Shown here in pieces: positions 5,727-14,010 of a stretch of 25,412 bases of DNA. The stretch is from an uncultured Anaerolineales bacterium. Its GTDB lineage: Bacteria > Chloroflexota > Anaerolineae > UBA7937. A model generated the notes under the pieces. It ran no database searches and was not told where the DNA came from. It was given only the letters and a program-made list of their open reading frames with translations. Location of the stretch: positions 1-25,412 of the forward strand of contig CAYUAM010000001.1 in assembly GCA_964442805.1 (NCBI GenBank). The letters are read 5' to 3'. Position 1 is the stretch's first letter, and each line of letters opens with the position of its first letter. The position numbers and the translations under genes were made by a program.

Positions 5727-5998
5727 TCAGAGTTTGACGTGCTCCAGAATGTAATCGAAGGTTTGTCGTCCAGATCCTCTATGGGAGAATAGTACCCTTG
5801 AGTGGTGGTGACGCTGGCATGCCATGCGGCTCTCTGTACCCTAAACACCGTGACCCCGCCATCGATGGCCAGAGTGACAAAGGTGTGTCGCCGGACGTGG
5901 GGATGAATCTCCTTAGGGTCCAGCCCTACCCGCTTAGCTTACCACCTGACCAGTCTTACCATTGCTCTTGTGGAGGTCGCCTTATCCGAGGCTGGAAG
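5727..5998 (-). pseudogene. Tyrosine recombinase/integrase C-terminal remnant
   Basis: Reads RLVRW*AKRVGLDPKEIHPHVRRHTFVTLAIDGGVTVFRVQRAAWHASVTTTQGY, a degenerate HxLRH...GH...TTxxY box II. It has an internal stop and a late frameshift, and the N-terminus is missing. Confidence 0.75.
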
Positions 5999-6637
5999 AT
6001 TTTAAACTCCATCCTTCTTTCTCGCCTGACGGTAGGTACAACCAAGTTGAACCGCCCAATGCCCAACCGAAAGAGGTTTGATGCGTATGTTCATCATGGT
6101 ACAATAGTGACATGGGGCTGGGCGGTGGCCCAGCCCTTGGCGACTAGGATTCTCTACGGCAGGAGAAAACGCAAGGGCCCTCAGAAACTCTTACTCTGGC
6201 TGCGGATGCGCCTCTTGTCTGTGACCGTTTCATTGGCTACCATCCTACATGACCAGCTCCGGTTGCCATCTTTGGACACTTTCATTTGGAGGCCTTTCAT
6301 CAGAATCTGCCCAGCAACCCAGGCTGGCACAGATCGCCTGCCTTCTCTCCTTTCCTGCGAAATCCGAACGTGTAGGGACTTTTCCCGCCGCAGTGGTCAT
6401 TGACTTGATAGAGGTTATGGGCTATAATCTGTGCACCGTTCGAGCATGCGCAGCAGTGGATGGCTCACTCAGAAGAGAAGAGCACAACTCAAGCCCTAAG
6501 TTCTCACCGTGATGTGCTTAGGTTAGGAAAGCCCGCCGATCATATGAACTCAAAAAGTTGAAAGCTCAGATGGAGCCGTAGGCGCTAATGGTATTGCTTT
6601 CCATAATCATCTTGGCCCGGAGGATGTAATAGACCGA

Positions 6638-6730: not shown

Positions 6731-6825
6731 AAGATAACTCCGAAAAGGCAAACTCGTCGAAAGGCGAGGGTGCAAAGCCACGGGTCCTGACTTTCTGGAT
6801 AACCGGGCTGCCGAAGAGATTTCTT
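6731..6825 (+). ncRNA. Cyclic di-GMP-I (GEMM) riboswitch aptamer
   Basis: GGCAAAC (6747-6753), stem CTCGTC-GAAA-GGCGAG, GCAAAGCC (6772-6779), P3 CGGGTCC...GGATAACCG, and 3' GGGCTGCCGA match the GEMM consensus. Confidence 0.9.
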
Positions 6826-7200: not shown

Positions 7201-7800
7201 ATGACCAGGGCGGTAAGGTGTCCTCATTGTCTTTCTGTTGTCAGGGCTCAGATTAATGAGAGGTGCCGGTGCCCCTCATGTGGGGGATATTTCTTCGTCG
7301 CGAACCCAAGCCGAGCCCTCCTTGGCCCCTGCAGAAATCTCTATTCCATACCTCGAGGGAACCAGCGGCCAAGACGGGGAATGGCTAGGACGAGGAGTGG
7401 GGTGGGGTATGGTCCAATCCTTCAGGGGCCGGGGTACCAAGACGGGCTGGGGAGGTGGAACTCTATCATCTCCGGCGCCTGGCCGGCCACGTGTCAGGGC
7501 AGGCCAGGCGTACCAGGCCGAGGAACGATTATCGAGCCTTCCTTATATCCCAAGGAGCCGGAATGGGAGATAATTGACGGCAACCCTGATTATCAATTGA
7601 TTATCGATTTTCCATATCATCGGGATCAGGAGATAGCCGTGGAGACTGAGGGTGGGATCTTAGCAATCCGAAGTCTCAAAGAGGATGCTCCTCCTCGCTA
7701 TCACATCGAGTTTGCCCTTCCGCCGGAGGTTGTCGAAAAGAGCCTTAGCCGGGTGTTCAATAACGGCTCTCTGATCTTGCGCTTTGACAAGAAGGAGTAG
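7201..7800 (+). CDS. Zinc-ribbon / disordered linker / Hsp20-like (alpha-crystallin) domain protein
   Basis: RBS AAGGAG. N-terminal CPHC...CRCPSC, R/G/P-rich middle, and C-terminal EPEWEII...YQLIIDFP...EFALPPEV...[12 protein letters not shown] resembling the Hsp20 beta-sandwich. Confidence 0.65.
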
Positions 7801-10331: not shown

Positions 10332-10419
10332 TCTCCTTTTCTTGTTTGCTTAAAAGATGGATGGGAGGTGCGGGTATGCAAATGATGGGGATAACGGGAT
10401 GTGGAGGAGGGAGGTTCCC

Positions 10420-12591
10420 ATGACTAGGAAGGACAAAAAAGAAGAGGGGGTCCTGACTTTGCGGGTTGCAGAAGGGCAGAGCAAGGATGTTGGAAGGGGC
10501 ATTGCCCGCATCGACCCCCAGGATTTCGAGAGGATCGGGGCGGCGATCGGCGATATCGTCGCTATCACCGGGAAGAGAACGACCGTGGCCAAGATCATGC
10601 CTGCCTATCACGCCGACCGAGGAAAAGGCATCGTGCAGATCGACGGCATAATTCGAGAGAACGCTCAAGCCAGTCTAGACGAAAAGGTCCGTATTCACAA
10701 GGTTGATCACCAGATAGCCAAGCAGCTCACCTTGGCCCCTCTGGGCTCGGGGCGGACTCTGCCTCGAGGGTCGGATAGCCGCTACGTTGGAAGGTTGCTC
10801 GAAGGGCTAGTTATCACTGAAGGGGATCGGGTTCGCGTCAACCTCTTCGGTACCCGCTCCGTGGATTTCACCGTGACCGATACCTCTCCTGAGGGCATGG
10901 TTATGGTGGCAGCAGCCACGATCACCAAGATCGAGGGGGAAGGGGCGGAGAGGGAGCGGGGGCTGAAGGTCTCCTATGAGGATATTGGGGGGCTGGGCAA
11001 GGAGATTCACCGCATCCGAGAGATGATCGAGTTGCCATTGAAATACCCTGAGGTCTTCGATCGGTTGGGCATCGAAGCACCAAAGGGCGTCTTGCTACAT
11101 GGCCCTCCGGGCTGCGGCAAGACCCTTATCGCCCGCGCCGTGGCCTCGGAAACATCTGCTCATTTCTTTCCCGTCAACGGCCCGGAGATCATCCACAAGT
11201 TCTACGGTGAGAGCGAGGCGCACCTACGGGAGATCTTCGAGCAAGCGAGCCGCAATGCGCCGAGCATCATCTTCCTAGATGAGATCGACGCTATCGCTCC
11301 CAAACGGGAGGAGGTACATGGCGAGGTGGAGAAACGGGTGGTGGCCCAGCTTTTGGCCCTGATGGATGGCTTGAAGTCCCGAGGCGAAGTGATAGTCATC
11401 GGGGCCACCAACATCCCGAACTCTTTGGACTCTGCTCTACGTCGTCCAGGCCGCTTCGACCGGGAGATCACCATCAGCATCCCGGACAAGAATGGCCGTC
11501 TGGAGATATTGGAGATACACACTAGAGGAATGCCCCTTGCTGATGATGTGGATCTGGAAAGACTGGCCGAGATCACCCACGGCTTCGTGGGAGCTGACCT
11601 GGAGGCTTTGTGCCGCGAAGCGGCCATGATCACCTTGCGTCAACTGATGCCGGATATCGACTTCGCTAAGTCTCACATCCCCTACGAGCGGCTGCTGGAA
11701 TTAGAGGTGACCATGGACAATTTCCTGACCGCTCTAGGAGAGGTCGAACCATCGGCCATCCGTGAGGTCTTCACTGAGGTTCCCGATGTCAGATGGGAGG
11801 ACATTGGGGGCTTGGAGGAGGTCAAGGAGATACTGAAGGAAACTGTTGAATGGCCTCTCAAGTACCCTGAGCTCTTCGCACAGGCCAAGACCGCGCCGCC
11901 TAAAGGGATACTTCTGTACGGGCCGCCGGGCACAGGCAAGACGCTTTTGGCCAAAGGGGTAGCCAACGAAAGCGAAGTGAATTTCATCTCCGTCAAGGGC
12001 CCGGCGCTCATGTCTAAGTGGATGGGGGAGAGCGAAAAGGGGGTGCGTGAGGTATTTAAGAAGGCCCGGCAAGCAGCACCCTGTATCATCTTCTTCGACG
12101 AGATCGATGCCCTAGCCCCCATACGGGGCTATGGCGGCGGAGACTCCCATGTGGCTGAGCGGGTGGTCAGCCAGTTTTTGACGGAGATGGACGGCATTGA
12201 GGAACTGAAAGGGGTAATCGTCTTGGCCGCCACTAACCGTTTGGACATCATCGACCCAGCATTGTTACGTCCTGGCAGGTTCGATGTGCTCATCGAGTTG
12301 CCCCTCCCCGACCGTGAGGCCCGTGAGGCGATCTTCAAGATCCATACCAAGGACAAACCCCTGGCTTCCGATGTTGACCTGAGGATCTTGACGGATATGA
12401 CCGAGGGCTCAGTGGGAGCGGACATCGAATCGATCTGTCGCCAGGCCTCGATGTTAGCCATTCGAGAGTTTCTCAATGAGGAGGTCGACTCTAAATCGTA
12501 TGAGAGTTTTCAGATCACCATGCGACATTTCCGCCAGGCGATAGAAATGGCCGGGAAACTGGCCTCGCCGGGACCATTGACGAAGGGTTAG
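10420..12591 (+). CDS. cdc48: CDC48/p97/VAT-family double AAA+ ATPase
   Basis: ATG 10420 with RBS GGAGG. N-domain [18 protein letters not shown]; Walker A GPPGCGKT and GPPGTGKT; Walker B FLDEID and FFDEID; two RPGRFD arginine-finger motifs. Confidence 0.96.
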
Positions 12592-12617
12592 ACATAGGGA
12601 AGAGTTTGTGGTATAAT
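12589..12617 (+). promoter_or_regulatory. Strong sigma70-type promoter P1 at the end of cdc48
   Basis: TAGACA-17 bp-TATAAT with extended TG. Confidence 0.8.
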
Positions 12618-12623
12618 GTTATT

Positions 12624-12830
12624 GGTATTTCTTCCATTTTTGAGATTAGATATCTTGCTTGTTAGGGTCAGATCCTCGAGATCTAGTGAGGTCGATGAGA
12701 CAGCGTTGGTGTTGAGTGCGCCCCTTCCTGGAGGAAGGTGTCTACCCCAGCGATGACGACTCTCGCCAGGAAGGTCTTTTCGAGGGTCTGACGGAGTGAC
12801 CCCGTCGCAAAGACGGGGTCACTCATTTTT
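12624..12830 (+). ncRNA. Putative structured ncRNA or leader, unit 1 (unassigned family)
   Basis: Lies between promoter P1 and a terminator. 15-bp closing stem 12667-12681/12778-12792 plus nested stems; no credible ORF. Confidence 0.55.
12794..12830 (+). terminator. Intrinsic terminator
   Basis: Perfect 13-bp stem GAGTGACCCCGTC / GACGGGGTCACTC, then ATTTTT. Confidence 0.85.
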
Positions 12831-12933
12831 GGAACCGAAGGCCGTGTATGGGAGAGTGCGTTTTCTTAACCACTTCCGGGTCCGTTATCTTTCGCTGGGC
12901 ATTGGAATTTACGGAAAATTTACGCATAGCCCA

Positions 12934-12962
12934 TTGACACCTCAGTAAGAAGGTGGTAAGAT
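12934..12962 (+). promoter_or_regulatory. sigma70-type promoter P2
   Basis: TTGACA-17 bp-TAAGAT with extended TG; preceded by AATTTACG x2 at 11-bp period (12906-12924). Confidence 0.75.
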
Positions 12963-12968
12963 TATAGA

Positions 12969-13290
12969 TGAATTTGATGAATTTGAGGACTTCCTCTCAT
13001 GACAAAATAGACCCTCTGAAAGGGGAGGGGTGAAGCCAGGGGTGTAAGATGAAAGCAGGCTAGGGTAACCAGCCAGATTACCGCCGCGGGCTCGGCGGCG
13101 AAGAGGATGCTTCGTCAATCTCTTCTGGTGTGGTTGTCCTTCGGTTGGCTTTCTAGTGGGGGAGAGTGCTTCGTGTTAAGGAGTCTGACAAGTACCTCAT
13201 TGAATCTGTGCACTCCTTACTCGGTTAGCTCATTTTGCAGAGGTTTTGAGCCATCTTGACCTTATTGGGTTGAGATGGCTCTTTTTCTTT
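12969..13290 (+). ncRNA. Putative structured ncRNA or leader, unit 2 (unassigned family)
   Basis: Lies between promoter P2 and a terminator. Multibranch pairing: 12993-13010/13229-13243, 13032-13039/13145-13152, 13062-13077/13124-13140, 13177-13184/13212-13219. Confidence 0.55.
13248..13290 (+). terminator. Intrinsic terminator upstream of gvpA
   Basis: GAGCCATCTTGACC / GGTTGAGATGGCTC (14 bp with G-U pairs), then TTTTCTTT. Confidence 0.85.
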
Positions 13291-13507
13291 GAAAGCGGGG
13301 AGTAAAAGGAAAGGGCTGACCGGGGATCAGCCCTCCCGAGGAGAATCGGGCTAAACCATTGCTCAGCATTTGCCAGGCCGGTAATGGATCACCCATCGGC
13401 TATACTCAGGAGGTGTGATTATCCTCCTGGTGCCCTCTCCCCAGGAATTATTCTATCACAGTTTAGTCTAAAAGTAAAGGATTACGGACGAAAGGAGGTG
13501 AGAAGAG

Positions 13508-13720
13508 GTGGCAGTGGAGAAGGCTATCGCGTCCTCGAGCCTGGTCGAAGTTGTCGACCGGGTCTTGGACAAGGGGATCGTGATTGATGCTTGGGCCAGG
13601 ATCTCCCTGGTGGGCATCGAGATACTAGCCCTCGAGGCCAGGGTCGTGGTCGCTGGGGTAGACACCTTCCTCAAGTACGCCGAGGCCATCGGCTTGACGC
13701 CGCTGGCTGCACCGGCCTAG
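13508..13720 (+). CDS. gvpA: Major gas vesicle structural protein GvpA, copy 1
   Basis: 70 aa, [56 protein letters not shown]; GTG start with RBS AGGAGGTG. Confidence 0.98.
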
Positions 13721-13797: not shown

Positions 13798-14010
13798 ATG
13801 GCAGTGGAGAAGGCTATCGGGTCCTCGAGCCTGGTCGAAGTTATCGACCGGGTCTTGGACAAGGGGATCGTGATCGATGCTTGGGCCAGGATCTCCCTGG
13901 TGGGCATCGAGATACTAGCCCTCGAGGCCAGGGTCGTGGTCGCTGGGGTAGACACCTTCCTCAAGTACGCTGAAGCCATCGGCTTAACCCCCTTGGCTGC
14001 TCCGGCGTAG
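13798..14010 (+). CDS. gvpA: Major gas vesicle structural protein GvpA, copy 2
   Basis: 68/70 aa identical to copy 1; the RBS region is duplicated as well. Confidence 0.98.

Follow-up and report, generated by a model that had tools for sequence, protein, structure and literature searches.

What is the RNA encoded ahead of gvpA in the gas-vesicle (gvp) cluster of an uncultured Anaerolineales bacterium (Anaerolineae, Chloroflexota), and does it govern that gene? The stretch analysed here, referred to as the window, comprises 25,412 nucleotides (nt) of contig CAYUAM010000001.1 (assembly GCA_964442805.1), and its 917-nt spacer from an AAA ATPase gene to gvpA contains a unit, termed unit 2, that extends from a promoter (P2) to an intrinsic terminator (T2). 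An initial annotation had interpreted this unit as a multibranch RNA that is either a new large riboswitch or attenuator gating gvpA or an independent noncoding RNA of the gvp locus. The part of that proposal that stands is a riboswitch-type leader or noncoding RNA with its own promoter and terminator, predicted to be transcribed; its novelty does not stand. In this report, we provide evidence that unit 2 is very probably not a new RNA class but an eroding remnant, by descent an orthologue, of a class I riboswitch for cyclic diguanosine monophosphate (c-di-GMP-I, also termed GEMM-I). On balance, and with moderate confidence, we favour a combined account in which unit 2 is a riboswitch-derived gvpA leader (12967-13291) that is blind to its former ligand and acts as a terminator-based attenuator.

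Origin of unit 2

Seven lineages were compared, namely the window and six related Anaerolineae lineages that share the promoter-to-terminator unit. A locus search based on GvpA recovered the homologous spacer in two relatives (L001 and L002), and four more distinct lineages (L128, L129, L133 and L135), as well as partial contigs, were reached through AAA ATPase homologues with 92-94% identity; the L133 spacer is identical to those of L131 and L132, and these were counted as one lineage. Coordinates refer to the window, and features lie on its plus strand unless stated otherwise.

All six relatives carry a canonical c-di-GMP-I riboswitch, rs1, between the upstream unit 1 and P2 (Rfam, 74.8-88.8 bits), with a promoter and a terminator of its own, and in L135 a riboswitch of this upstream type is present twice. 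L133 has, in addition, a c-di-GMP-I match in Rfam (74.6 bits) within unit 2, where the sequence aligns with window 12994-13091. At the gathering threshold there is no Rfam match in the unit-2 region of the window; below it, c-di-GMP-I-GGC scores 15.4 bits at 12998-13086 (E = 1.2; gathering score of RF03167, 59), and the L002 orthologue reaches 19.7 bits against the gathering score of 35 for RF01051. A covariance model made from the intact riboswitches of the seven-lineage group (R1) recognizes the window copy at 15.7 bits (E ~0.003), and the paralogy of the unit-2 aptamer with rs1 was detected by nhmmer. Moreover, GGGGGAGAGTGC and the hairpins CCGCCG/CGGCGG and GAAGAG/CTCTTC correspond to the rs1 expression platform and the 3' strand of its terminator. 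Homology of the window copy with accepted c-di-GMP-I members is therefore supported with high confidence by L133 orthology, R1, nhmmer and the alignments. Because of the L133 orthologue, the presence of rs1 in the relatives and the Rfam and R1 matches in the window, we interpret unit 2 as the second riboswitch (rs2) of a tandem pair. A match to a known family, which the initial annotation had itself held to speak against a new class, thus exists by orthology (L133, 74.6 bits), although the score of the window copy lies below the Rfam gathering threshold. A scan for tRNA and tmRNA found none in the region.

The window is the sole lineage among the seven in which rs1 has been deleted. Alignment with the six relatives places the deletion scar at 12830-12895, where the 3' half of the rs1 terminator (GGGAGAGTGCGTTTTCTT, 12850-12867) and a trailing small hairpin are left; the rs1 promoter and aptamer are gone, and R1 finds no rs1 there. 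These observations suggest a model whereby the ancestor of a small Anaerolineae group would have had two c-di-GMP-I units in series before gvpA, each with its own promoter, and the window lineage would then have deleted rs1 while keeping the decayed rs2.

In the collections searched, unit 2 is restricted to the seven closely related lineages. A pattern scan of the genome collection with GGAGAGNGCNTCGTGNTANGG returned only the L001 and L002 contigs, plus 43 chance matches; a metagenome scan with the T2 pattern gave a single match, L127, whose spacer is identical to that of L002; and an exact-GvpA look-up gave only a 1-kb contig without the unit-2 region. In the next-closest group (L137-L139, AAA ATPase ~77% identity), where gene order differs, the fetched flanks contain neither unit 2 nor a c-di-GMP riboswitch, and the same holds for the fetched flanks of other Chloroflexota gvpA loci. 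The place after the AAA ATPase is occupied in L137 and L138 not by gvpA but by response-regulator and GGDEF (diguanylate cyclase) genes, which lie on the opposite strand after the gvp operon ending in the AAA ATPase (L137 7377-8303, L138 7173-8183), a further hint of a link between c-di-GMP and gas vesicles.

State of the aptamer

The decayed aptamer occupies 12994-13091, as delimited by the sub-threshold Rfam match, the R1 match and L133 orthology, and it includes a GAAA hairpin (13012-13029) resembling the P2 arm of the riboswitch fold. R1 scores of the unit-2 aptamer fall from 95.6 bits in L133 through 43.0 in L135, 41.1 in L002, 26.3 in L129 and 20.3 in L128 to 15.7 in the window, and in L001 the aptamer has been removed by deletion. 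The lesions seen in the alignment are not alike from lineage to lineage. In the window, AAAGGCAAACC has become AAAA--TAGACC, with loss of the GGC, of the unpaired G and of the G-C pair that follows it; the C of TTACCG, the GAAA loop and the AAGCC junction are retained. A model-fitted alignment keeps 19 of 27 canonical pairs, versus 24-27 in intact copies, and hand pairing by eye, rather than a tool count, leaves two of the four P1 pairs and gives P3 mismatches and a 4-nt AACC insertion. The P2 arm, too, has been lost in part.

In the Vibrio cholerae Vc2 riboswitch, G20 and C92 contact the ligand, and G20 reads one guanine of c-di-GMP (PMC6140456). By alignment, the G lost in the window would be the counterpart of G20, and the retained C of TTACCG that of C92; we consider it likely that the rs2 aptamer of the window is blind to c-di-GMP. 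In the minimum-free-energy (MFE) structure of the window RNA, the inserted AACC is paired to a GGTT further downstream, which lengthens a helix that competes with the aptamer, a single observation that would fit a fold locked in the non-binding state. Canonical copies have C-GAAA-G, and the window, L002, L135 and L001 have T-GAAA-G. By eye on the alignment, the 5' half of the L133 unit-2 aptamer is the same as its own rs1 at 33 of 35 positions; divergence of the second copy may date back to the common ancestor, and gene conversion may have restored it afterwards in L133.

Rates of evolution were expressed as mean pairwise identities among the compared genomes, with the fourfold-degenerate sites of the adjacent AAA gene (0.79) as the neutral baseline. 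The highest values belong to the rs1 aptamer (0.94) and to a block of the gvpA leader, TGCCCTCTCCCC (0.93), followed by T2 (0.84-0.87) and the P2 core (0.84). The 5' repeats (0.79) and the 3' domain (0.77) of unit 2 come next, then the expression platform (0.69, or 0.82 without gaps) and the aptamer relic (0.60, or 0.68 without gaps). No other part of the spacer evolves as fast as the relic, which outpaces synonymous sites and shows no detectable purifying selection; its rate argues against a conserved ligand-binding role of any kind.

Structure of the unit-2 RNA

The 327-nt RNA folds better than its shuffles (z = -3.3), with a nearly equal value for the opposite strand (z = -3.25). Its MFE structure is not the multibranch architecture of the initial annotation, as both the TAAGGAGT stem and the closing stem listed there (12993-13010/13229-13243) are absent from it, and the latter cannot form in four lineages, which lack the GACAAAA segment. 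Mapped on the seven orthologues, the window MFE shows no covariation and does no better than shuffled alignments (paired cells, 76.1% versus 75.9%; 204 of 500 shuffles as good). Several local elements were nevertheless correctly seen: the two capping hairpins are present at 13081-13098 and 13100-13125, as is the 8-bp stem 13032-39/13145-52.

Most of these elements find a place in the riboswitch. Pair counts define the remains of its expression platform at 13081-13125, with hairpin Hx (CCGCCG 13081-86/CGGCGG 13093-98) and hairpin H3 (GAAGAG 13100-05/CTCTTC 13120-25), a segment homologous to the rs1 platform of the relatives. It is followed at 13126-13178, as seen in the window MFE, by a strand able to pair with the 3' half of the aptamer and then by the relic of the riboswitch's own terminator (GCTTTCT 13148-54/AGAGTGC 13163-69, then the weak tail TTCGTGTT), which has lost its U-tract. 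GGAGAGNGC and the rs1 terminator's 3' strand are homologous, and the L135 homologue of the relic was flagged as terminator-like. The pairing strand accounts for the 16-bp and 8-bp stems of the initial annotation, and the entire segment is missing in L002 and L001. Constrained folding of rs1, used to ask whether it is an ON or an OFF switch, forms the rs1 terminator in both states and so does not favour either logic. We infer that the multibranch fold is probably, for the most part, the leftover alternative, ligand-free pairing of an eroding riboswitch.

Beyond the relic lies a 3' hairpin domain (13156-13220) in which, from pair counts across the lineages, two stems compete for the strand ACTCCTTAC. 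The stem between TAAGGAGT and ACTCCTTA in the initial annotation is indeed perfect in the window (13177-84/13212-19, one base off the positions implied there), with eight of eight pairs, but it is weaker in the relatives, where only 4-7 of the 8 form. In every lineage, 5-7 of 7 pairs form in the competing stem, GTGGGGG 13156-62 with 13214-20 (within CTCCTTAC, 13213-20). The RNAalifold consensus joins this 3' hairpin with a closing helix between 12973-12992 and 13222-13241 (CGGTTAGCTCATTTTGCAGA; alignment columns 7-26 with 261-280), which ends 6 nt ahead of the terminator, keeps 12-16 of 16 pairs in all seven lineages and has three pairs changed on both sides. Together, the closing helix and 3' hairpin are present even in L001, which is without the aptamer; they are 88.5% paired, with four double-sided changes where shuffles average 1.2 (3 of 500 shuffles reach four), in a test made on the same alignment of seven close relatives that yielded the structure, and with ~85% of pairs expected, by rough estimate, to be kept under neutral drift from a paired ancestor. 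Protein-coding candidates were rejected: the open reading frames 13107-13259 (plus strand) and 12942-13118 (minus strand) lie in segments that are deleted or indel-ridden in the relatives, and no start codon follows the AAGGAG at 13178, leaving no leader peptide or small protein.

Promoter P2, terminator T2 and the link to gvpA

The promoter and terminator of unit 2 were located by dedicated scans. P2 (12934-12962) is a sigma-70-like promoter, TTGACA-17-TGgTAAGAT, with the -35 hexamer at 12934-12939, a 17-nt spacer and a TG-extended -10 hexamer at 12957-12962 (10 of 12 consensus matches). Its hexamers are identical in six of the seven lineages, the exception being L135, where they are weakened (TTGATA and TAAGGT), and the scan also calls the site in L133. 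The predicted RNA 5' end (12967-12992) carries the tandem repeat already recognized in the initial annotation, a 9-mer, GATGAATTT, at 12967-12986 (Tandem Repeats Finder, 2.2 copies, 100% match). Directly upstream of the -35 hexamer, the sequence contains two direct repeats, AATTTACG, 11 bp apart (12906-12913 and 12917-12924, within 12905..12925), of a type that the alignment shows in three copies in relatives and that is possibly a transcription-factor site. A GAATTT(AC/GA)G motif recurs: two or three copies, spaced by 11 bp, form the direct repeats before the -35, and the 9-bp tandem repeat where transcription is predicted to start is another occurrence. In relatives (L133 and L002), a like motif, ATT(T/A)ACGCAAAA, is found upstream of the rs1 promoter; such repeats may be sites for a single DNA-binding regulator.

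T2 (13248-13291) consists of a 15-bp stem at 13248-13281, one pair longer than previously counted, and the U-tract TTTTTCTTT. It is nearly invariant, with 98% of cells paired in the seven lineages, and is the only clearly maintained structure of the unit. As a GC-rich hairpin with a U-tract that lies between promoter and gene and is kept in relatives, T2 has the features of a terminator-attenuator.

Between T2 and gvpA, the promoter scan found no plus-strand sigma-70 promoter in any of the seven lineages, which extends to the six relatives the earlier reading of the window. The lone TATACT noted there (13401-13406) exists in the window and is specific to it, the relatives having GCAACT. A weak plus-strand candidate, CTGACC-19-GAGAAT, in the leader hairpin was discarded, as its spacer has a 21-nt insertion in L129 and L002. 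That leader hairpin, CAGGAGG/CCTCCTG at 13408-13428, has undergone three independent changes that give G.U pairs on the plus strand and A.C mismatches on the minus strand, which places the start of rightward transcription through the leader upstream of 13405. In L135 (GCA_964383935.1), an IclR-family gene (5779-6576) is inserted between T2 and the gvpA leader, and the scan detected no promoter for it. Because of the missing downstream promoter, the G.U pairs and this insert without a detected promoter, P2 appears to be the best candidate promoter for gvpA, with T2 as a putative attenuator. P2 would feed gvpA, T2 would stop most transcripts ~220 nt before the gene, and gvpA expression would depend on read-through. 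Selection would still keep P2, T2 and, more weakly, the helix between the 5' repeat and the segment directly before T2.

Two further features of the leader were observed. Within 13408-13443, the hairpin CAGGAGGTG...CCTCCTG resembles the ribosome-binding site of gvpA, GAAAGGAGGTGA (13490-13507), and carries an anti-Shine-Dalgarno strand, which suggests translational control. Adjoining this hairpin, TGCCCTCTCCCC (13432-13443) is conserved more strongly than any other leader segment and shows complementarity to GGGGAGAG of unit 2.

Weighing the alternatives

The strength of both P2 and T2, and their conservation, would also suit a free-standing small RNA of ~320 nt that always ends at T2 and acts in trans, with gvpA served by a promoter of its own that escaped recognition. 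Unit 2 has the promoter and terminator expected of such an RNA, and with unit 1 next to it, clearly a small RNA that runs from promoter to terminator, small RNA genes are a theme of this spacer. A candidate mode of action would be pairing of the G-rich GGGGGAGAG (13158-13166) with the leader block TGCCCTCTCCCC (13432-13443), and the complementarity of GGGGAGAG to CTCTCCCC does involve that best-conserved leader segment (0.93). However, this 8-nt match shows no covariation, as L135 and L129 change one side only, and unit 2 has no standout complementarity elsewhere in the window (longest 13 nt, E ~0.1). Nor was a plus-strand gvpA promoter found after T2 in the seven lineages, or a promoter of the gene inserted there in L135. 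We hold the free-standing small RNA with a separate gvpA promoter, the main rival, to be a possible but doubtful explanation as a whole, while on the narrower point of whether unit 2 serves as gvpA leader and attenuator or as a separate small RNA the evidence is about evenly balanced. A working variant riboswitch that gates gvpA via T2 in response to a changed ligand (3',3'-cyclic GMP-AMP (3'3'-cGAMP) or another dinucleotide) is the rival nearest to the initial annotation, and a very improbable one. The G20-equivalent is replaced with an A nearby, reminiscent of the G20-to-A variants of the GEMM-I fold, GEMM-Ib, that bind cGAMP (PMC6140456); the GAAA hairpin, AAGCC junction and TTACCG are kept; and the loss of rs1 leaves rs2 as the sole sensor-like element beside gvpA. 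Nevertheless, the window copy scores lowest of all orthologues, with a broken P1 and, even when aligned by the model, just 19 of 27 pairs, the adjacent relic terminator lacks a U-tract, the region evolves faster than synonymous sites with lineage-specific indels, and one lineage deleted the aptamer and kept everything else. The 5' repeats and 3' domain, no better conserved than fourfold sites, and the lack of covariation in the window MFE could also be read as neutral debris of a duplicated riboswitch, with conservation reflecting the closeness of the seven genomes. Such debris appears very improbable in view of only 2 changes in 84 cells of the P2 hexamers, both in L135, and 2 unpaired among ~98 cells of T2; by our own estimate of ~10% neutral change per lineage, both elements are kept far beyond expectation, and a strong promoter aimed at gvpA is unlikely to be without effect.

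Several points weigh against the riboswitch-derived attenuator that we favour. T2 looks very strong, and read-through is hard to account for. No conserved antiterminator was found, since RNAduplex of the upstream RNA against both T2 arms returned weak partners at inconsistent positions, and a 5-bp option seen by eye (GCTCA/TGAGC) is not convincing. The transcription start, termination at T2 and read-through are all predicted from sequence, and gvpA might have a promoter of a type outside the coverage of the scan. Loss of ligand binding is likewise predicted from sequence, in a fold family where cGAMP-binding G20-to-A variants exist and in a copy that keeps the C92 equivalent. The evidence for the closing helix and 3' hairpin is only suggestive; the 5' repeats, 3' domain and closing helix change at about the synonymous rate (0.77-0.79), and the fourfold-site baseline may overstate neutral identity.

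Neighbouring genes and regulatory elements

Pfam identifies in the window a GvpH/Hsp20-like gene, the CDC48-type AAA ATPase (10357-12591), two gvpA copies (13508-13720 and 13798-14010), a GvpN-like AAA_5 protein, Hsp70, two GvpL/F genes, GvpG and a GvpJ/M-like gene, and the nearest relatives of the window GvpA belong to Anaerolineae/Anaerolineales metagenome-assembled genomes. The C-terminal ~15 residues of the AAA ATPase (12560-12591) exist in two unrelated versions, one in the window, L128, L129 and L002 and the other (DAWQRLGHRDEAVV) in L133, L135 and L001; the unit-1 promoter overlaps the 3' end of this gene.

Unit 1 (12589-12830) comprises a promoter (12589-12617), an antisense segment (~12726-12768) and a terminator (12794-12824). 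Over 23 nt (12731-12753) it exactly matches the reverse complement of each gvpA copy (13650-13672 and 13940-13962; VAGVDTFL codons), and with mismatches the complementarity extends to ~40 nt. Unit 1 is conserved in all relatives and has the appearance of an antisense RNA that acts in trans and stems from an inverted piece of gvpA. On the minus strand, unit 3 (13305-13478) has the promoter TTTACT-17-TGaTAGAAT (13478-13450), present in all seven lineages with TAAAAT in L002, and a terminator-like hairpin (13337-13309), from which a ~135-nt RNA antisense to the gvpA leader is predicted. A weak minus-strand Rfam match to Sib-RNA (E = 0.3 to 1.5) was judged to be a promoter-plus-terminator look-alike. 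Upstream of the first gvp operon (open reading frame 7201-7800 onwards) lies an intact c-di-GMP-I-GGC riboswitch (6738-6816, 73.1 bits), with a counterpart in L128, L131 and L133 (75.2 bits). In our model, c-di-GMP input to the gvp cluster of this genome would persist only through this intact riboswitch.

Discussion

Identification of unit 2 as riboswitch-derived removes a false lead, in that no new riboswitch class needs to be invoked, and documents a gradation, rarely seen in nature, from an intact through an eroded to a deleted copy of a tandem riboswitch among sister lineages, while the other copy, rs1, is under strong selection and yet has been lost in one lineage, that of the window. c-di-GMP-I riboswitches stand directly before gas-vesicle genes: the relatives have one ahead of gvpA, and all of them another ahead of the first gvp operon. 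If these work as expected, buoyancy would join the c-di-GMP-governed decisions between sessile and motile life. In an incomplete literature search, we found no work combining riboswitch, gas vesicle and c-di-GMP, and no riboswitch topic among the listed titles of papers that mention both gas vesicles and c-di-GMP. Unit 2 also offers a test case of regulation rewired by riboswitch loss. A more speculative and rather unlikely possibility is that the eroded riboswitch has been reused without its ligand, as a small RNA or as a protein- or RNA-controlled attenuator, with 13158-13166 and the closing helix contacting the gvpA leader, or that it is a variant sensing another dinucleotide. If reuse is true, control by RNA would be unusually dense in this region, with unit 2 as one layer alongside the trans-antisense unit 1, the cis-antisense unit 3 and the hairpin with Shine-Dalgarno-like and anti-Shine-Dalgarno strands.

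Several known systems can be compared with this unit. The Listeria RNAs SreA/SreB and EutX/Rli55 are riboswitch-derived or riboswitch-terminated small RNAs with functional aptamers and demonstrated targets. Unit 2 shares with them the promoter-aptamer-terminator organization and a predicted discrete short RNA that possibly acts in trans; unlike theirs, its aptamer is eroded and any target is putative. With the GEMM-Ib (3'3'-cGAMP, G20A) riboswitches it shares the fold family and a change at the position reading the first base of the ligand, but known members keep the rest of the core and the helices, whereas the window copy does not, and its variant is unconserved in the relatives. Among c-di-GMP-I riboswitches themselves (RF01051/RF03167, for example Vc2), the L133 orthologue and rs1 are full members (74.6-88.8 bits), and the window retains the order of P1, P2 arm with GAAA loop, AAGCC junction, P3 arm, TTACCG and then the GAAGAG/CTCTTC platform hairpin. 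The window copy differs in its score (15.4-15.7 bits versus gathering scores of 35 and 59), in the absence of the GGC of AAAGGCAAACC, in a broken P1, in a P3 with mismatches and a 4-nt insertion, and in an own terminator without a U-tract. Tandem c-di-GMP-I riboswitches are common, with 347 doublets reported (PMC9481103), and a triple arrangement, Bc3-5 of Bacillus thuringiensis, has been characterized as 'pseudo-cooperative' (PMC9481103, PMC4759541). Similarly, the relatives have two or three units in series before one gene, with a terminator after each; what sets them apart is that each unit is preceded by a sigma-70 promoter, that most lineages show decay of the second unit, with the decayed one alone left in the window, and that the targets are gas-vesicle genes.

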